A stretch of 64,000 nt of DNA from Bradymonadia bacterium (GTDB taxonomy: Bacteria > Myxococcota_A > Bradymonadia > UBA7976 > UBA1532): contig JBKAGE010000034.1 in assembly GCA_046290225.1 (NCBI GenBank), forward strand, positions 256,001-320,000. Direction: 5' to 3'. Below, piece after piece: positions 1-11,123 of the stretch. Below the pieces are notes generated by a model. It ran no database searches. It worked only from the letters and a program-made list of their open reading frames with translations, and was not told the origin of the DNA. A program made the position numbers and the translations under genes. Numbering within the stretch: the stretch's first letter is position 1; every line of letters begins with the position of its first letter.

Positions 1-818
1 GCGGCACGGGGAAGGAGCTCTTCGCCCGGGCCATCCACGAGCTTTCCCCGCGGGTCGATCAGCCCTTCGTCGCGGTGAACTGCGCTGCGCTGCCCGAGAC
101 CATCATCGAGGCTGAGCTGTTCGGCTCGGAGAAAGGCGCCTTCACGGGGGCCGTGCAGACCCGCGAGGGTCGCTTCACCCGGGCCGACGGGGGCACGCTG
201 TTCCTCGACGAGATCGGCGAGCTGTCGGCGTCGGTGCAGGTGAAGCTGTTGCGGTTCTTGCAGTCTGGCGAATTCGAACGCGTGGGCGGCACCCGGACCG
301 AGCATGTGGATTGTCGCATCATCGCCGCCACCAACCAGGATCTCGGCAAGCTCGTCAAAGAAGGCTCGTTTCGAGAAGACCTCTACTATCGCCTCAATGT
401 CATCGCCATCACCCTGCCGCCGCTGCGGGCCCGGCGAGAGGACATCCCCCTGCTCGCTGATCACTTTCTCCGGCTGTATGCCGAGAAGAACCGCAAGCCG
501 ATTGAAGGCCTCACCGAGGCGGCCATGGCCCGCCTGATGGACTACTCGTGGCCAGGCAACGTGCGGGAGATCGAGAACACCCTCGAGCGCGCCGTGGTCC
601 TCGCCCGGGGGGTGCACCTCGACGTAGACGATTTGCCGGAGAGCATCTCCGGCGCCGCGCCGAGCGCCGAGGGCCTGTTCATCTCCATGGGCACCCCCCT
701 CGAGGAGATCGAGCGCCGCGTGATCCGCGAGACCCTGCGCTACACCGACGGCGACAAGAAGCGCGCCGCACAGCTGCTCGGCACCTCGACCCGCACCATC
801 TACCGCAAGCTGGAGTGA
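1..818 (+). CDS. Sigma-54-dependent transcriptional activator (NtrC/Fis family bEBP), 5' end outside window
   Basis: Frame from nt 3 reads [12 protein letters not shown] (Walker A), [13 protein letters not shown] (GAFTGA loop), LFLDEIGE (Walker B), [16 protein letters not shown] and a C-terminal Fis-type HTH ([18 protein letters not shown]). Confidence 0.95.
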
Positions 819-872
819 CGTGCTCCAGCTGCTCTGAGAGGGCTCCGAGAGCGCCCCAGAGCATGCTCCAAA

Positions 873-940
873 AGACACGATGACAAAATGTCAGCGGGCC
901 AAAACCGACCCCCTGCCAATCTGACAAATTGACAAACTGA
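873..940. promoter_or_regulatory. Putative enhancer (bEBP-binding) sites
   Basis: Perfect palindrome TGACA-AAA-TGTCA at 881-893. An 8-bp-periodic array TGCCAATC/TGACAAAT/TGACAAAC runs at 914-937. Both lie ~75-130 bp upstream of the sigma-54-like promoter. Confidence 0.6.
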
Positions 941-1010
941 TCCAGATCAGGAATCCAGGCAGACCCCGGAAGATTGTAGGGGGTGGCCAACGGGCGTTGT
1001 ATCGCTCGGC

Positions 1011-1026
1011 TGGCGCGCTTCGTGCA
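1011..1026 (+). promoter_or_regulatory. Putative sigma-54 (-24/-12) promoter of the gsp operon
   Basis: TGGCGCG-CTTC-GTGCA has the exact GG-N10-GC spacing and resembles TGGCACG-N4-TTGCW. It lies 90 nt upstream of gspC. Confidence 0.7.
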
Positions 1027-1116
1027 TATGAAGGGCGGGGCAGACGCGGTCTGCTTCGCCTTGGGTCAATGCCGAGGTCACGACCGACGGCAAACTGAGA
1101 GGGTCACCGGAGCACG

Positions 1117-2130
1117 ATGGACAGTTTCATCAAACGCTACTTCTGGATCGTCAACGTGGCGGTCCTCGGGGTCATCGCCTATCTCGGCGCCCGGGTGGCC
1201 AACAATCTGATCGCCGGCGAGATCGTCGGGCTCGCAACGAGCCCTGCGGTGGAGGGCCCCGAAAAAGAGGGCAAGAACGCCAAGAGCAACAAGAAGTCCG
1301 AGCGCAGAGGCCTCGGCTGGGCCGAGCGCATCATGGGGCGCAACCTCTTCAACGCCAACCCGCCTGAAGATCCCGAAGACGGCCCCAAAGATCCCAACGA
1401 CAAGCCAGAAGAGGGCGACAAGCCCGTGGTGGCGAGCGGCGAGATGCCCACCAGCCTCGACGCCTGCGAGAAGAGCGAAGAGCGCATCGTGCTCCTGGCC
1501 ACCATGGTGGCCGAGCCCCAAGAGCTCTCCATGGCCGTCGTGCAGGACAACTCCAACGACCGAATCCTCAAGCCGGGCATGTCCGCCGGTGAAGACGCCG
1601 CGGTGAAGGTGGCCCGCATCAACCGGTCGTGGCTGGTGCTGCAGAACAGCAAGGGCACCTACGAGTGCGTCGCCGTGGGCGGCAAGAAGCAGGCGAAGAA
1701 GAAGAAGGGCCGCGGCGTCGACCGCACGAAGCCCAAGAAGGGCAACCGCGGGGGCAGCCTCACCAAGGCCGACCGCGACGCCATCAAGAACGGCGTGCAG
1801 AAGACAGGCAAGAACGAGTACCAGATCGACCGCGAGATGCTGAACGAGCAGCTCGCCGATCTGAACAAGCTCGCCCGCCAGGCCCGGGTCATCCCCCACT
1901 ACCGCGACGGTCAAGCCCAGGGCTACAAGCTCGTGGGCGTGCGCCCCGGCAGCCTCTACAGCCACCTGGGAGTGCGCAGCGGCGACATCCTCAAAGGCGT
2001 CAACGGCGAAGAGGTCAACAGCCCGAACAAGGCCCTCGAACTCTTCGAGAAGCTCAAGAGCAGCGACAACGTGAGCCTTGAGGTGGAGCGTCGCGGCAAG
2101 CCTGTGGCCCTGGAGTACAACATCAAATGA
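1117..2130 (+). CDS. gspC: Type II secretion protein GspC
   Basis: N-terminal TM helix, HR-like region (LLATMVAEPQELSMAVV) and C-terminal PDZ domain (GYKLVGVRPGSLYSHLGVRSGD...VNG). First gene of the gsp cluster. Confidence 0.9.
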   Translation: MDSFIKRYFWIVNVAVLGVIAYLGARVANNLIAGEIVGLATSPAVEGPEKEGKNAKSNKKSERRGLGWAERIMGRNLFNANPPEDPEDGPKDPNDKPEEGDKPVVASGEMPTSLDACEKSEERIVLLATMVAEPQELSMAVVQDNSNDRILKPGMSAGEDAAVKVARINRSWLVLQNSKGTYECVAVGGKKQAKKKKGRGVDRTKPKKGNRGGSLTKADRDAIKNGVQKTGKNEYQIDREMLNEQLADLNKLARQARVIPHYRDGQAQGYKLVGVRPGSLYSHLGVRSGDILKGVNGEEVNSPNKALELFEKLKSSDNVSLEVERRGKPVALEYNIK

Positions 2131-2879
2131 GACTCCACTGGCTATCATCCATGGCCATCGGCGTGGCCCTCCTGGCGCCCACCGCGGGTGCGGCGAAGTC
2201 GAGCCTTGCCGAGGATTTCATCCAGAAGTGCAAGGCGCTCCCTCCAAACGGCCAGGTCACCCTCGACATCGTCGACGAGCGCCTGCTCACGGTGGGCAAA
2301 GTCGTCGCATGCCTCACGGGCAAGACGGTGACCTTCGGCGACCCGCTCAAGAGCCTCAAGAAAGAGCGCCTGACCATGCTGGGCACAGCGCGATACACCG
2401 CGCCTGAGGTGCTCGAGGCCTTCGTCAACCTAGTCGAACTCAAAGGCTTCACTGTCAAACAACAAGGCAACTTCGTGCACATCGCTCGAGGGCCGCGGGG
2501 CGTACCCTGCGAAGCTCAGACCAAGATGCCCATCGAGCAGGGCGTGCGCGAGGTGGGCGCCAATCACTATCAGCTTGAGCGCAAGATGCTCGATGAGCAG
2601 TTCGCCGACCTGACTCAGCTCGCGCGTCAGGCACGGGTGATCCCCCACTACCGTGACGGCCGGCCTCAGGGCTACAAACTCATAGGCATACGGGCCAAGA
2701 GCCTCTACAGCCATATCGGCCTCCGCAGCGGGGATCTGATCAAGCGCATCAACGGCACTGCGATCAACTCTCCCAACGACGCCTTGTCGCTCTTCGAGAA
2801 GCTCAAGAGCAGCGACACGGTGAGCCTCGAGGTGGAGCGTGCGGGCCAGCCTGTGATGCTCGAGTACACCATCAAATGA
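1792..2879 (+). repeat. Diverged direct duplication of the gspC PDZ-coding segment (1792-2130 vs 2541-2879)
   Basis: Shared runs such as ctcttcgagaagctcaagagcagcgac, and near-identical 3' ends gagtaca(a/c)catcaaatga. Confidence 0.85.
2127..2879 (+). CDS. Secreted chimera: secretin N0-like domain plus GspC-type PDZ domain
   Basis: Signal peptide (…LLAPTAGA). The N-half aligns by eye with the N0 region of the adjacent GspD. The C-terminal 112 aa are 78/112 identical, without gaps, to the GspC C-terminus. ATGA overlap with gspC. Confidence 0.85.
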   Translation: MRLHWLSSMAIGVALLAPTAGAAKSSLAEDFIQKCKALPPNGQVTLDIVDERLLTVGKVVACLTGKTVTFGDPLKSLKKERLTMLGTARYTAPEVLEAFVNLVELKGFTVKQQGNFVHIARGPRGVPCEAQTKMPIEQGVREVGANHYQLERKMLDEQFADLTQLARQARVIPHYRDGRPQGYKLIGIRAKSLYSHIGLRSGDLIKRINGTAINSPNDALSLFEKLKSSDTVSLEVERAGQPVMLEYTIK

Positions 2880-2926
2880 TTTTCAGTATTTCACGACCCC
2901 GGATTTCCAGTCCCTTGTCCCCCAGG

Positions 2927-5800
2927 ATGACGATGACCACCTCGAGGACCACCCCCAGACTCATCGCGCTGCTCGGTTTGCTGATCGGGCTCTTGATCCC
3001 TGCCATGGCAGGGGCTCAGGACGAGCCGCCGAAGCTCAACACGCCTCGGATCCCCAAGCAGCTCGACGTGCCCCAGATCAACCCGGGCAAGCTCCCCACG
3101 GGGCGTGTCAATCCCAAGCTCAAGCGCAAGCTGGGCCGAGATGTGGTGGCCCAAAAGAAGGACGACGCTGCGGAGGCCAAGGCCAAGCCGCCCCCGCGGC
3201 GCCCGCGGCCCCGCACCCGGACGCCCCTGCCGCCCCGTGACACCGCGGGGAAGGCCGGCGCCAGGAGCCGTCGCGACACCAAGGACAAAGACGACGACAA
3301 GGGCGCCGACAAGGACGAGAAGTCCAGCGATCTGCCCAAGTGGCGTCAGCAGGAAGAGAACGAAGAGGACAAGCCCGAGGAGCCCTCCCTCGGCGCCGAC
3401 TTCGTCAAGGCCTGTGTGAAGCTGCCCCGGGGGGCCAAGGTCAGCCTCGACATCTACGAGGAAGAGCTCGAGGCGGTGGTGAAGATCATCGCCTGTATGA
3501 CCGGCAAGAACATCATCATGGCCAAGAGCCTCAAGGGGAAGAAGATCACCATCTACTCCCCCACCCTCGTCACCAGCGGTGAGGCCTACCGGGCCTTCCT
3601 CACCGCCCTCGAGGTGAACGGCTACACCATCTCCAAGCAGGGCAAGTTCCTGCGCATCATCGAGAGCAAGGACTACCTGAGCAGCTCCGATCCGATCCGC
3701 AAGGGCGGCCGGCCCCCGAACGAGGATCGCATGGTCACCCAGCTCGTGGCCCTGGAGCACGTGGACGCTCAGGAGGTCAGCCAGCTGCTGCAGCAGCTCG
3801 CCACCGGCAGCGCCAAGTTCATCGTGTACCAACCCACCAACACGCTCATCGTGAGCGAGGTGGCCAGCAACCTGCGCAAGCTCCTCAGCCTCGTGGACGA
3901 GATCGATGTGCCCAGCGGCTCCGAGCGGCTGTACGTCTATCAGATCGTCAATGCCGACGCTGAAGAGATCAAAAACAAGATCATGGAGATCTACGAGCAG
4001 GACGAAAAGAAGGCCAGCGGCGGTGGAACCACCACCAACAAGAACCGCCGCAAGCGCAAGCGGGGCAAGGACAAGACCCCCGCCAAGCCCACAGGCACCA
4101 GCGTCGGCGAGTCCGGCGCCGACGTGAACGTGAGCAAGATCGTCGCCGACGAGCGCACCAACCGCCTGTTCATCATCACCAACGAGAAGTCCTACCGAAA
4201 GGTCAAGGACCTCATCCGCCGGCTCGACGTGGCCATCCCCGGCGACGGGCAGATCCACATCTTGCAGCTCAAGCACGCCAAGGCCGAGGAGCTGAGCAGC
4301 GTGCTGAGCAACCTGAGCCAGAACGCCAACCGGAACTCCGGCGGCAACCGACGCTCTGGTCGGAACAACAACAGCGGCCGCAACAACCGCAGCGGCAACC
4401 GCAGCGGCAACCGCAACTCCGGTGGCGGTGGGGCTGGTGGCGCAGCCCTCTTCGAGGGCGAGGTGCAGGTCACCGCAGACGCCGACACCAACTCCCTGGT
4501 CATCACCGCCAGCCTGAAGGACTACCTGTCCATCAAGAGCGTGGTGGAGACCCTGGACAAGCCGCGCCGCCAGGTCTTCGTCGAGGCCGTGGTCATGGAG
4601 GTCAGCCTCGACAACGAGCGCCAGTTCGGCATGAGCTTCCACGCCCCCATCCCCGGCACCGAGGTGAGCGACGACAGCTCCCCGCTGCTGCTGGGCAGCT
4701 TCCCCAGCCAGGAGTTCAACTCGCTGTCCTTGAGCCCCAGCCTGCTCAGCGGCTTCGCCGCCACGGCCCTCGGGGAGAACATCGGCGGCAGCAGCGCCTT
4801 CGCCGAGCTGCCCAGCTTCGGTGTGGTGATGCGGGCCCTCGCCAGCAGCGGTGACGTGAACATCCTGTCGACGCCCCACATCTTGACCACCGACAACCAG
4901 GAAGCAGAGATCGTCGTCGGTCAGAACGTGCCCTTCACCACGGGCTTCGGCGGCGGCCTCGGCGCTCTCGGTGGCCTCGGCGGCCTCGGCGGCCAGAACG
5001 CAGCAGGCGGCCTCGGTGGCCTCGGCGGCTTCGGCGGCTTCGGGTTCCCGCAGATTCAGCGTCAGGACGTAGCCCTCACCCTGAAGATCACCCCCCGCAT
5101 CAACGCCGACAACTTCGTCACCATGGAGATCGACCAGGTCATCGAAGAGCTGGGCCCCGAGCCCACGCCGGGCCTCGGCCCCGCAACCACCAAGCGGAGC
5201 GTAAAGACCACCGCCGTGGTGAAGGACCAGCAGACCGTGGTCATCGGCGGTCTGCAGCGGACCACTCAGACCAACAGCGACAGCAAGGTGCCGTTGCTCG
5301 GTGAGATCCCTGTGCTGGGCATTCTGTTCCGCGACTCGGTGCGCCGCAGCCAGAAGCAGAACCTGCTGCTGCTGCTCACCCCCTACGTGGTGGAGAGCTC
5401 GGAAGACTTCAAGACGATCTTCAAGCGCAAGATGGAAGAGCACCAGGAGTTCGTGGCCCGGTTCCAGCAAGAGGGCGACGTGCTCGCCATCGGCGTGGAC
5501 TACCGCAAGAAGCACGGCGTGCTCGAGGCGGTGAACAAGTCCATCACCCTGGCCCGCGAAGAGGAGCGCCTGCTCGAAGACCTGCGCAAGCAGGACATCC
5601 CGCCGATCCTGCCCCAGGACGTGGACGGCATCGTGCTCGAGGCCGACGAGCAGCGCCTCAACCCCGACGTGAAGAAGCGCATGGAAGAGCTACTCAAGGC
5701 CCAGGAAGAGCGCCGCCGGGCCATCGAGCGGGGCATCGACGACACCACGCCTCCCCCCGAGGAGGATGTGGCGCCGCCCCCCATGGACACCACCCCCTGA
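2927..5800 (+). CDS. gspD: Type II secretion secretin GspD (start could be 2876, 2927 or 2933)
   Basis: Signal peptide (AMAGA-QD), N0 and N1-N3 repeats (LEHVDA, ADERTNRL, LKHAKAEEL, ADADTNSLVI), secretin core (RRQVFVEAVVMEV, NILSTPHILTTDNQEAEI, KVPLLGEIPVLGILFR, LLLLLTPYVV). Confidence 0.95.
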   Translation: MTMTTSRTTPRLIALLGLLIGLLIPAMAGAQDEPPKLNTPRIPKQLDVPQINPGKLPTGRVNPKLKRKLGRDVVAQKKDDAAEAKAKPPPRRPRPRTRTPLPPRDTAGKAGARSRRDTKDKDDDKGADKDEKSSDLPKWRQQEENEEDKPEEPSLGADFVKACVKLPRGAKVSLDIYEEELEAVVKIIACMTGKNIIMAKSLKGKKITIYSPTLVTSGEAYRAFLTALEVNGYTISKQGKFLRIIESKDYLSSSDPIRKGGRPPNEDRMVTQLVALEHVDAQEVSQLLQQLATGSAKFIVYQPTNTLIVSEVASNLRKLLSLVDEIDVPSGSERLYVYQIVNADAEEIKNKIMEIYEQDEKKASGGGTTTNKNRRKRKRGKDKTPAKPTGTSVGESGADVNVSKIVADERTNRLFIITNEKSYRKVKDLIRRLDVAIPGDGQIHILQLKHAKAEELSSVLSNLSQNANRNSGGNRRSGRNNNSGRNNRSGNRSGNRNSGGGGAGGAALFEGEVQVTADADTNSLVITASLKDYLSIKSVVETLDKPRRQVFVEAVVMEVSLDNERQFGMSFHAPIPGTEVSDDSSPLLLGSFPSQEFNSLSLSPSLLSGFAATALGENIGGSSAFAELPSFGVVMRALASSGDVNILSTPHILTTDNQEAEIVVGQNVPFTTGFGGGLGALGGLGGLGGQNAAGGLGGLGGFGGFGFPQIQRQDVALTLKITPRINADNFVTMEIDQVIEELGPEPTPGLGPATTKRSVKTTAVVKDQQTVVIGGLQRTTQTNSDSKVPLLGEIPVLGILFRDSVRRSQKQNLLLLLTPYVVESSEDFKTIFKRKMEEHQEFVARFQQEGDVLAIGVDYRKKHGVLEAVNKSITLAREEERLLEDLRKQDIPPILPQDVDGIVLEADEQRLNPDVKKRMEELLKAQEERRRAIERGIDDTTPPPEEDVAPPPMDTTP

Positions 5801-7587: not shown

Positions 7588-8814
7588 ATGGCGACTTACG
7601 ATTTCAAAGGTCTCGACAAGCGAGGCAAAGAGGTCAGCGGGGTCCGCGAGGCCGAGAACGAGAAGGCCCTGCGGCAGCTGCTCAAGAAGGAAGGCATCTT
7701 CCTCACCAAGGTGGGCAAGGGCGGCAAGAAGGGCGGCAGCTTCCTCTCGGCGGAGGTCGACTTCGCCCAGATGTTCGAGAAGATCAACGGCCAGGACATC
7801 GCCATCCTGACCCGGCAGCTCGCCACCCTGCTCAAGGCCAGCATCCCCGTCGTCGACGCCCTCGGGGCCTGCGTCGAGCAGGTGGAGAAGCCCAAGCTGC
7901 GCAAGGTGGTCAGCCAGCTGCGCCAGGAGGTGAACGAAGGCACCAGCCTCGCCACCGCCCTCGAACAGCACCCCGACATCTTCAGCCCCATCTTCCCCAA
8001 CATGGTGAAGTCGGGCGAAGCCAGCGGCACCCTCGACGACGTGCTCATGCGCCTCGCGGAGTTCACCGAAGCCCAGGTGAAGCTCAACCAGAAGGTCAAG
8101 AGCGCGATGACCTATCCGGTCATCATGGTGGGCATCGGCGCGTTGATCCTCGCGGGTATGTTCGCCTACGTGATCCCGCAGATCACGCAGATCTTCGAAG
8201 ACACGGGGCAGGAGCTGCCCTGGATCACGAACGCCCTCATCAGCGTCAGCAACGGCTTCCGGTCATACTGGTGGGTGGGCCTGCTGATGGCCTTTGGCGG
8301 CATGACCATGTTCCGCCGCTGGAAGGCCACCAAGAACGGCGCCCTCAAATGGGACGAGATCAAGCTCAAGCTCCCAGTCTTCGGGCAGCTCACCTTGATG
8401 GTGGCCATCGGACGCTTCACCAAGACTCTGGGCACCCTGCTGCGCTCCGGCGTGCCATTGCTCACCGCCCTGGACATCACCAAGAACGTGCTGGGCAACC
8501 GGGTGCTCATCGAGATCATCAGCGACGCCCAGGTGGCCGTGAAAGAAGGCTCCAGCCTCTCGATCACGCTCAAAAAGAGCGGGCGCTTCCCGCCCATCGT
8601 CACCAACATGATCGCCATCGGTGAGCGCTCCGGCGCTCTGGAAGACATGCTCAACGTCGTGGCTGAAGCCTACGAGAGCCAGGTCGAGGGGCGCATCGCC
8701 GCCCTCACCAGCCTGCTCGAGCCGGTCATGATCGTGGGCATGGGCGTCACCATCGGCATCATCGTCTTTGCGGTGCTCATGCCGATCCTGCAGCTCAACG
8801 AGTTCGTCAGTTGA
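7588..8814 (+). CDS. gspF: Type II secretion inner-membrane platform protein GspF
   Basis: Two T2SSF repeats (TRQLATLLKAS, GEASGTLD, GERSGALEDML, LLEP) and 3 TM segments. Confidence 0.95.
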   Translation: MATYDFKGLDKRGKEVSGVREAENEKALRQLLKKEGIFLTKVGKGGKKGGSFLSAEVDFAQMFEKINGQDIAILTRQLATLLKASIPVVDALGACVEQVEKPKLRKVVSQLRQEVNEGTSLATALEQHPDIFSPIFPNMVKSGEASGTLDDVLMRLAEFTEAQVKLNQKVKSAMTYPVIMVGIGALILAGMFAYVIPQITQIFEDTGQELPWITNALISVSNGFRSYWWVGLLMAFGGMTMFRRWKATKNGALKWDEIKLKLPVFGQLTLMVAIGRFTKTLGTLLRSGVPLLTALDITKNVLGNRVLIEIISDAQVAVKEGSSLSITLKKSGRFPPIVTNMIAIGERSGALEDMLNVVAEAYESQVEGRIAALTSLLEPVMIVGMGVTIGIIVFAVLMPILQLNEFVS

Positions 8815-9929
8815 AGTGGCTCAACCTCCTCGTCGATCGGCGGGTGGCCCTCCTCGTGGGTGGGTCCGCTCTGCTGCTCGACTTGCTCTCCAAAGAGCTG
8901 GTGACCACCCTGCTGCCCGAGGGCAGCCAGGTCACCGCCGGGCCGCTGATGATTCAGCACGCCCGGAACCCGGGCGTGGCCCTGGGCACCTTTGGTGGGC
9001 TCTCCGAGGGGGTGCGCATGTCGCTCGTGGTGGTGGGCATGCTGGTGGCGCTCTTCGTGGCCCTGCCCTGGCTCGCCCGACGTCTGCGGGCGGGGGCGCT
9101 GAAGCAGACCGCCGTGGCCCTGGTGATCACCGGCGCCATCGGCAACTTCGCCGATCGGCTGCGCTACGGCTCAGTCATCGACTTCATCGGTCTCGATCCG
9201 GCGCTGGGTATCCCTTCTCCGGTGTTCAACCTCGCCGACGTAGCCATCGTCGTCGGCGCGGCGCTGTTGCTGTGGGGCCCCAAGCGCACGGGGCCTGGCC
9301 GCGGCCAGCCGCTGCCTCAGGATTCGTGGCCGGGCATTTCGGAGAGCAATCCCGGTACTCAAGACTCTTCCTGGACGATCATCGCCGTGCGCCGCGCCCC
9401 CACCAAAGAGGTGGTGGCCTCGTCGATCAAGCTGCTGGGCGTGCTGCTCGCGGTCAGCGTGGCCCTCGGCGCCCCCAAGGCTCAGGCGCAGGGCGACGCT
9501 CAGGCAGGCCAGGTGGCCTCGATGAACGCCCAGATGCGCATGATCCGGCAGGCCGTGCAGGCCTACCACCTGCAGCACAAGCGTCACCCCGAGCAGCTCG
9601 AGGCCCTCGCCTCGCCGCCGGAGGGTCAACCATTTCTGAAAGCCCAGCACCTGATCGACCCGTGGGGCATCCCCTACACGTACCAGGTCCGTGGCGAAGC
9701 CCTCGACATCATCAGCGCCGGACACGATGGCAAGCTCGGCTCCGACGACGACGTGATGCTCGTGGGCAACACCTTGAAGCACCAGGGCCCCATCGACTTC
9801 AGCCCGCGCCCCGCCCCCAAGAAGAGCAACACCCTGCCCCTGGCCCTCATCGGGGGCTTCACCGTGGTGTCTCTCGTGGCCTGGCGCATGCTGCTGGCGA
9901 AGAAAGCGAAGGCCGATGCCCTGGCTTGA
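8811..9929 (+). CDS. lspA: Lipoprotein signal peptidase II fused to a GspG-type pseudopilin head with a C-terminal TM anchor
   Basis: TTG start overlapping the gspF stop. LspA motifs DLLSK, NPGVALG, GAIGNFADR, GSVIDF, VFNLAD. Then a hydrophobic segment ending AQA-Q, a GspG head (IDPWGIPYTY…IISAGHDGKLGSDDD) and a TM helix with a basic tail. Confidence 0.85.
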   Translation: MKWLNLLVDRRVALLVGGSALLLDLLSKELVTTLLPEGSQVTAGPLMIQHARNPGVALGTFGGLSEGVRMSLVVVGMLVALFVALPWLARRLRAGALKQTAVALVITGAIGNFADRLRYGSVIDFIGLDPALGIPSPVFNLADVAIVVGAALLLWGPKRTGPGRGQPLPQDSWPGISESNPGTQDSSWTIIAVRRAPTKEVVASSIKLLGVLLAVSVALGAPKAQAQGDAQAGQVASMNAQMRMIRQAVQAYHLQHKRHPEQLEALASPPEGQPFLKAQHLIDPWGIPYTYQVRGEALDIISAGHDGKLGSDDDVMLVGNTLKHQGPIDFSPRPAPKKSNTLPLALIGGFTVVSLVAWRMLLAKKAKADALA

Positions 9930-10026: not shown

Positions 10027-10135
10027 AAGCGAACCATCTGATATCAAAAGAGGAATCAACATCCTCTCCCAAGCGATTGAGTCCAGTGAGAACGGGGCGG
10101 AGCACCTCACATCACTGGGCCAGAAGGAGGTAACC

Positions 10136-10612
10136 ATGAACTTCAATCGGTCCCGTTGGGCACGTCTTCTCCCCCAGCGCACTGCTGCGCGTCTGCAGGC
10201 TCGTCAGGGCGAGGCCCCCATGGCCGCCCGTCGTCGCCAGAAGGGTATGACCCTCCTGGAGATCATGATCGTGATCACCCTCATCGGGGTGGTCATGGCG
10301 GTGGTGGTGACCAACGTCATCGGCGCCGGCGACAACGCCAAGATCTCCGCGGCGAAGACCAAGATGCAGAGCATCAAGCAGCAGGTGGACATGTACTACA
10401 CGATGTTCGACGAGTACCCGGACAACCTCCAGGCCCTCGTCAAGCCCCCCGCTGGTCGCAAGCCCCTCATGAACAAGAACGGGCTCAAGGACCCCTGGGG
10501 CAAGAAGTTCAACTACAGCAACCGCGATGGCGACATCCAGCTCAGCAGCTCGGGCCCCGACCGCAAGGAAGGCACCCAGGATGACATCAAGTTCGGCGGT
10601 GAGGAGCAATAA
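10136..10612 (+). CDS. gspG: Major pseudopilin GspG
   Basis: Strong RBS AAGGAGG before ATG 10136 (3' part of the 8768..10612 ORF). Prepilin site KG|MTLLE, KDPWGKKFNY and the C-terminal SSGPDRKEGTQDD loop. Confidence 0.9.
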   Translation: MNFNRSRWARLLPQRTAARLQARQGEAPMAARRRQKGMTLLEIMIVITLIGVVMAVVVTNVIGAGDNAKISAAKTKMQSIKQQVDMYYTMFDEYPDNLQALVKPPAGRKPLMNKNGLKDPWGKKFNYSNRDGDIQLSSSGPDRKEGTQDDIKFGGEEQ

Positions 10613-10703
10613 AGGCCTGAGATAGGCCCCTGGGGCCCTCTGCGTCGAACGCGCGCCATCGTTTCACACATCCGCAGTGTGCGGATAGAGGAGGAAGCAG
10701 GAG

Positions 10704-11123
10704 ATGGGCAGGTTCAACACGCAGAGGCGCCTCGACGCGAGGAAGCGGCATCCCAAGGGATACAGCTTGATCGAGATCCTGGTGGTCATCTCACTCATCG
10801 GTGTGGTGATGGCCATCACAGTGACCAACGTGATCTCGCTGATCGATGAGGCGAACATCAAGGCCACAAAGGTCAAAATCAAGCAGGTGGCTGACCAGGT
10901 GGTCCAACACCGGGTCATTCACGACGAGTACCCCGGGCGCCTGGAAGACAAGGTGCGCCGCCCGAACGGGCGATCCGGGCCGATGAAGGCCGACGCGCTC
11001 AAGGACGCCTGGAAAAACCCCTGGGCATACAAGAGCGGCGAGCGTGACTTTGATTTGAGCAGCGCCGGGGTCGATGAAGACCACGGTACTGAAGACGACA
11101 TTCACCACGACGAGGACACCTGA
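10704..11123 (+). CDS. gspG: Second GspG-like pseudopilin
   Basis: RBS AGGAG. KG|YSLIE prepilin site, an N-terminal helix similar to the preceding GspG, KDAWKNPWAY and SAGVDEDHGTEDD. Confidence 0.85.
   Translation: MGRFNTQRRLDARKRHPKGYSLIEILVVISLIGVVMAITVTNVISLIDEANIKATKVKIKQVADQVVQHRVIHDEYPGRLEDKVRRPNGRSGPMKADALKDAWKNPWAYKSGERDFDLSSAGVDEDHGTEDDIHHDEDT

Follow-up and report, generated by a model that had tools for sequence, protein, structure and literature searches.

A fusion of a secretin N0 domain with a GspC-type PDZ domain, encoded between gspC and gspD of a Bradymonadia bacterium and recurring in related genomes

A small gene located between gspC and gspD in the operon for a type II secretion system (T2SS) of a Bradymonadia bacterium encodes a predicted exported protein in which the N0 domain of a secretin is joined to the PDZ domain of GspC, and the same architecture was found again in 53 of the best 150 representatives of a profile search. 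We call this gene X (2127–2879, + strand) in the following. The operon is complete within the 64-kb window, which is the whole stretch of DNA analyzed (64,000 nucleotides), and runs gspC, X, gspD, gspE, gspF and onward; gspF is followed by a fusion of lspA with a pseudopilin, two gspG-like genes and then H, I, J, K and L, and by sequence reading a sigma-54-type activator is also encoded at this site. The product of gspC (1117–2130, +) is a TM-HR-PDZ protein of 337 aa, which reaches 276.7 bits with the NCBIfam model GspC_delta (cut-off 150) and whose close matches carry Myxococcales or Bradymonadia bacteria as source names; its lineage is the putative donor of the PDZ half of X. The putative donor lineage of the other half is that of the secretin gene gspD (2876–5800, +), with 514 bits for TIGR02517, Pfam matches to N0, Secretin_N and Secretin and its N0 domain at about 3386–3658. 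X overlaps with both neighbours by an ATGA, namely with the stop codon of gspC and with the first in-frame ATG of gspD, for which an ATG at 2927 or 2933 may be the true start.

The operon contains a second fusion gene (8811–9929, +), coding for a signal peptidase II (PF01252, aa 20–155) and a pseudopilin G domain with the globular part PF08334 (aa 230–318) and a hydrophobic C-terminal tail. A strong match to its lspA part is present on a contig with T2SS genes in five of 27 genomes of the family, and the unbroken lspA-pseudopilin fusion in none of them. The tandem gspG-like pseudopilin genes (10070–11123, +) show 45% identity over 122 aa.

The reading frame of X is intact with 250 open codons. 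It starts with a predicted Sec signal peptide (about aa 1–24; 2127–2198, +), read by eye from a basic start, a hydrophobic core and an A-G-A type site. The following secretin N0 domain (aa 26–119; 2202–2483, +) is identical to GspD residues 171–261 at 36 of 94 positions (E 3e-19) and keeps both cysteines of the GspD family, C35 and C62; the alignment score is 183, compared to a maximum of 52 among 1000 shuffles. An HMM built from true GspD N0 domains only detects X with an E value of 1e-17, and the Pfam N0 model PF21305 matches X alone weakly (E 0.094). A linker (aa 120–138; 2484–2540, +) leads to the GspC-type PDZ domain (aa 139–250; 2541–2876, +), and these last 112 residues share 78 identical positions (70%) with the adjacent GspC. 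The linker carries a third cysteine, C128. Of 52 chimeras, 38 have a cysteine there; for X and the chimera of genome G008 the aligned GspC linker is without it. The AlphaFold model of X, calculated from a 5-row alignment (mean pLDDT 76, pTM 0.49), consists of two domains with both folds present, in which N0 is modelled as well folded and the signal peptide and the linker are disordered and of low confidence; the low pTM together with the disordered linker suggests two loosely joined domains. Using this model as Foldseek query the PDZ domains of EpsC (2i4s, the best match) and PulC came top, followed by the N0 domain of XcpQ (4ec5, rmsd 1.8 over 76 columns). Thus alignments, the GspD-only HMM and the predicted fold confirm the N0/GspC-PDZ chimera proposed in the preliminary description, including the two cysteines and the count of 78 identical residues, and support a fusion derived from gspC and gspD.

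X therefore resembles the GspC proteins, among which we count EpsC, OutC and PulC, in its C-terminal PDZ domain, and it differs from them in having no HR domain (GspC residues 1–200 gave no match to X) and probably no uncleaved inner-membrane anchor, in place of which a predicted cleavable signal peptide and N0 are found. With the GspD secretins (TIGR02517) it has N0, both family cysteines and a predicted signal peptide in common; in contrast to them it is unable to form a pore, as no Secretin_N or Secretin match was obtained, N1–N3 and the secretin barrel are absent and all 250 residues are accounted for. The model GspC_delta (NF041515), describing the GspC of Myxococcota and relatives, scores X with 159 bits over aa 129–250 only, and since the PDZ alone passes the cut-off, automatic annotation would likely label X as GspC.

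X had been regarded as a one-off, a view that did not survive a profile search with five N0–PDZ proteins against 1.84 billion representatives at 50% identity. Among the best 150 representatives examined, the 53 N0–PDZ proteins, four of them being query rows, were assigned by independent GspD-only and GspC-only HMMs, and PF21305 matched 31 of 47 aligned members unaided. The N0 domain is full length and recognisable in all 53 proteins, which come from clusters of less than 50% identity; 49 begin with a hydrophobic stretch, and a simple pattern search picks out something like a lipobox in seven. The few existing names are hypothetical protein, RseP or secretin. The search for orthologues, proposed along with the original claim, thereby returned N0–PDZ relatives, and it did so only with profiles: a single-protein word search with X gave X and GspC proteins only (six matches), scanning metagenomes with X as query gave no relative, the ESM Atlas returned PDZ look-alikes only, and none of the PDB chains listed matched both halves of X.

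At the genome level the N0 profile identified short frames in two of 28 family genomes, the genome of X (G000) and G008, the latter carrying a second signal–N0–PDZ gene away from its T2SS operon. From 401 genomes of the phylum, 42 others with at least two N0 matches were re-searched and 18 regions were read, which added the N0–PDZ genes of G148 and G262. N0–PDZ genes occur in at least four of the 401 phylum genomes (E 1e-58; six candidates scored per genome), all four belonging to the query alignment, and in at least five of 61 genomes of the family f43, among the matches listed, below which stood 87 weaker ones. X is located inside the operon, and the genes of G008, G148, G262, G415, G452, G453 and G454 are placed outside of it next to unrelated genes; orthologue pairs in sister species retain their neighbouring genes. 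Four lipoprotein-like genes of f43 matched the chimera profile over the full length but were not counted as N0–PDZ, as their N-terminal half gave no match with the GspD-only HMM.

Other arrangements of these modules were also observed. At L078, L080 and L085 (G423, G430 and G436) the gene between gspC and gspD encodes a lipoprotein that combines an N2-like secretin domain with a PDZ; these are three of three genomes searched of this f43 genus, the N2 assignment having an hhalign probability of 85.7 and an E value of 5e-6. In another case from one f43 genus, four lipoprotein-like PDZ genes with a very diverged N0-like half (L100–L103) have PilZ or carboxypeptidase-regulatory-domain genes as neighbours. 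The genome of X contains an orphan gene on contig C27 (L026:3488–4120, −) for a predicted signal peptide, a short Cys-bearing segment and a PDZ with 35% identity to the GspC type, as well as two weaker PDZ matches on C75 and C40. Two small genes, one for a lipoprotein-like N0–N0 and the other for a signal–N0 protein, lie between gspC and gspD in G282 (L028:4376–5576, −, contig C251). Stand-alone signal–N0 proteins and pore-less secretin fragments starting with N0–N1 (L029–L034, L036–L038, L043; L027, L040, L042) are found in several Myxococcota families, most of them in one clade of the N0 tree (support 99/93). Longer combinations are P0074 (PDZ–PDZ followed by four N0, 877 aa), P0156 (N0–PDZ–PDZ and, by eye, ankyrin-like repeats, 738 aa) and P0154, in which N0 is accompanied by a long extra segment.

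Trees of both domains point to three or four separate births of N0–PDZ from resident gspC/gspD lineages. The PDZ tree rejects placing five chimeras in a single clade (p-AU 0.001), and the chimera label changes four times on the N0 tree and nine times on a larger PDZ tree, in which seven other PDZ fusions were included. Larger quick trees show chimera clades of 17 (SH-aLRT 99), 27 (97) and 6 members (96), the latter two on the f43 side, and others inside the f1/f2 clade; as these trees comprise 110 columns with long branches, the number of origins is safely put at three or four. In the AU-tested PDZ and N0 trees the G008 chimera paired with the genes of its own genome, yet a joint clade with X is compatible with the data (p-AU 0.20 for PDZ and 0.25 for N0), and both join weakly as long branches in the larger N0 tree. 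The chimera clades elsewhere appear to be old, with some copies persisting.

X itself was likely born by a duplication of the gspC–gspD junction plus a deletion. A self-comparison of the DNA reveals the PDZ-coding repeat, with the 3' end of gspC (1781–2130, +) as copy 1 and 2530–2879 (+) as copy 2 (74% identity over 350 bp), but not the N0 half, for which blastn gave no extended match. The order PDZ then N0 is present in 63 of 71 gspC/gspD loci, two others having no PDZ and five having different extra genes, and the order PDZ, N0, PDZ, N0 is found only here. The ATGA at both ends of X is as predicted by a junction duplication, and in seven of 15 relatives listed the ATGA pattern likewise closes gspC, with an open frame behind it. 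Exactly one duplication, as originally claimed, is nevertheless too simple: a clean single event would add 1172 bp, whereas the real insert is 749 bp, so that about 145 codons (about 435 bp) of the low-complexity N-terminal extension of GspD must have been lost too. The signal peptide had been considered as a duplicated part of GspD as well, and here the likeness is no better than chance (equalled by 326 of 2000 shuffles). In two PDZ trees the row nearest to the PDZ of X is its own GspC, without a supported sister group, and its N0 forms a long branch inside the family and order clade (support 97), for which pairing with its own GspD is compatible (p-AU 0.32). Gene conversion with gspC may also have taken place after the birth of X.

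Codon analysis supports purifying selection on the PDZ of X, whereas its N0 appears relaxed and is compatible with neutrality; the earlier claim that X is selected thus stands for one half of the protein. Using a codon model in which the X branch has its own GC target, omega is 0.18 for the PDZ (background 0.15), clearly below 1 (2dL 16.9), and 0.56 for N0 (background 0.11), where omega = 1 is not rejected (2dL 2.0) and 0.1 gives a 2dL of 5.5. The G008 chimera has an omega of 0.43 for each half, and its tests are borderline (2dL 3.4 and 4.0). A model with fixed F61 frequencies was discarded, since its dS of 25–31 on the X branch is an artefact of the shift in codon use; GC3 is 0.81–0.83 in X and thereby below that of the parents (0.89–0.96). 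The Nei–Gojobori omega for N0 of 0.81 (CI 0.49–1.35) comes out too high at such a GC3; for true orthologue pairs this count gives 0.06–0.56. Changes in X avoid conserved columns in both domains (PDZ 6 of 37 versus 28 of 75, N0 20 of 41 versus 39 of 54; p 0.03 each), and this avoidance was not significant in two other chimeras tested. In two orthologue pairs the identity of N0 and PDZ is 0.82 versus 0.75 and 0.70 versus 0.54, respectively. An unselected X frame remained free of stop codons in about 6% of simulations (0.3 changes per site, indels left out).

Short contigs of depth below 5 from two public runs, in which errors are possible and the relatedness of the strains rests on pieces of 135–261 bases, contain five listed differences in the PDZ of X, all of them synonymous (p about 0.004 counting transitions only). 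A contig of 151 bases from run X3 covers gspC 1996–2130 with one difference and continues with 15 bases resembling the sequence behind the X stop codon (2880–2894, +), to which 11 of 15 bases match in register, compared to 2 of 15 for the bases following gspC here; a match of 11/15 is reached by just two of 128,000 window positions. This one short contig with its 15-base overhang suggests that a close strain lacks X and has an empty site instead, and the gene is likely dispensable. Another contig from an RNA run (X4, 174 bases with the last 59 bases of X and the start of gspD) was rejected as evidence for expression, because contigs cannot show transcription and because it could also be the end of a gspC hybrid.

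What X does can be proposed from what has been described for its two domains, and we tentatively favour an exported T2SS accessory whose N0 would dock on the GspC HR domain and thereby add a second cargo-binding PDZ. X would be translated in coupling with gspC through the ATGA overlap and exported by Sec into the periplasm, its N0 would bind HR by β-strand addition as in GspC–GspD from ETEC, and the second PDZ at the entrance of the T2SS would alter the export of a subset of substrates. The gspC–gspD order makes the secretin 5' end plus the GspC PDZ the easy fusion, and this would account for the repeated births; some copies were retained, were relocated off the operon or carry lipoprotein-like signals. 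According to the respective papers, GspC-HR is bound through strand addition by β1 and α1 of N0, an interface that secretion requires (PMC3169554), the GspC PDZ is required for a subset of substrates and able to capture one of them (PMC12369372), and fifteen N0 domains are occupied by seven HR domains, with gaps in between, in a recent structure (bioRxiv 10.64898/2026.05.07.723501). Secretin N domains also bind substrates, maybe at a site distinct from that for GspC (PMC5646246). The β1–α1 segment of X is identical to its own GspD at 11 of 22 positions, compared to 16 of 52 in the rest, a nominal excess. In 52 chimeras both values are 0.43, compared to 0.30 and 0.46 in GspD pairs of like distance, with the comparison resting on 22 columns, best-match GspD rows and chimeras that are related to each other. 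This retention, together with the known biology of N0 and PDZ, is why we place docking on HR before the other readings. Against it stands the fast evolution of the N0 of X, with its omega of 0.56 and 20 of 41 conserved positions altered, and as the HR site is also that of the secretin, docking may compete rather than help. The changing N-terminal partners of the PDZ, the rarity of N0–PDZ (4/401 phylum and 2/28 family genomes) and its seeming absence from the close strain also count against this reading.

A rather unlikely, though serious, alternative is that X works as a free exported GspC-type PDZ, which would hold or chaperone cargo, or bind further partners in the periplasm, with no docking on GspC involved; the 5' end of the secretin gene would have given only a signal peptide and a stable spacer, N0 being a passenger. 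The constrained PDZ next to the relaxed N0 in X agrees with this, as do the unrelated genes adjoining the other genome-placed N0–PDZ genes and the same PDZ behind other N-terminal parts, such as the N2-like domain in the one f43 genus and the orphan on C27. The variable partner, N2-like, extended in P0154 and unrelated in the C27 orphan, suggests that the PDZ is the retained part. But a passenger would hardly be expected to remain full length and recognisable in 53 such diverged proteins, to be better conserved than the PDZ in both orthologue pairs compared, and to be predicted as well folded in X. Considerably less probable is a decoy that damps secretion, with N0 keeping GspC-HR off the secretin and the PDZ retaining cargo. 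Such a protein would have the HR-binding domain without a pore, and a periplasmic nanobody blocking the XcpP–XcpQ contact is dominant negative (PMC5646246) and disruption of the HR–N0 interface halts secretion (PMC3169554). However, X is apparently translationally coupled to gspC, so that its synthesis would always accompany that of the machine and it would make a poor brake, and a search of 800–3200 gave no sigma-70-like promoter of its own, a weak test for this bacterial group. We give still less credit to X being a by-product that is tolerated at a junction prone to duplication, without a role and on its way to being lost, which the patchy distribution, the long branches, the lowered GC3, the near-neutral N0 value of the simple count and the possible empty site would fit. 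Rejection of omega = 1 for the PDZ, the exclusively synonymous strain differences listed, the low frequency of open frames in unselected simulations and the old chimera clades elsewhere argue against it.

Extending the HR-docking adaptor to the whole group is doubtful: Myxococcota would then have repeatedly built a soluble T2SS plug-in from the two modules with which the machine itself contacts cargo, secretin N0 and GspC PDZ, clipping on GspC-HR in order to swap or add a substrate-selecting PDZ.

Related solutions are known from other systems. Like GspB/OutB of the Dickeya T2SS, X would be an optional part reusing one side of the HR–N0 contact; GspB/OutB, however, is a membrane protein whose HR binds N0 (PMC9239104), whereas X represents the N0 side, is predicted to be soluble and carries a PDZ. 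The GspDN1–3 proteins of the mitochondrial T2SS are likewise secretin N domains present as separate small proteins, but there they stand in for the N domains that a split secretin lacks (PMC10128026), while gspD is whole next to X and N0 is fused to a PDZ. In the titles and abstract openings covered, a scope outside of which most subscription papers and supplements fall, no N0–PDZ fusion is described, and a supplementary table may yet contain such proteins, labelled as GspC. Thus the parts are known, and the N0–PDZ architecture and its repeated birth appear to be undescribed.

How the T2SS selects folded substrates is an open question with the GspC PDZ and the secretin N domains as main suspects, and dozens of natural proteins join exactly these two modules, from several births that are likely independent and each with its parent pair. 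They are soluble proteins ready for use in probing cargo recognition and the HR–N0 contact, and they show that a gene junction can yield the same new gene again and again. Should they turn out to be inert, they remain of importance because they give rise to false GspC annotations. If the adaptor model is true, the range of secretion would be widened without altering the core machine, by a class of T2SS adaptors that has been overlooked because its members are annotated as GspC or hypothetical.
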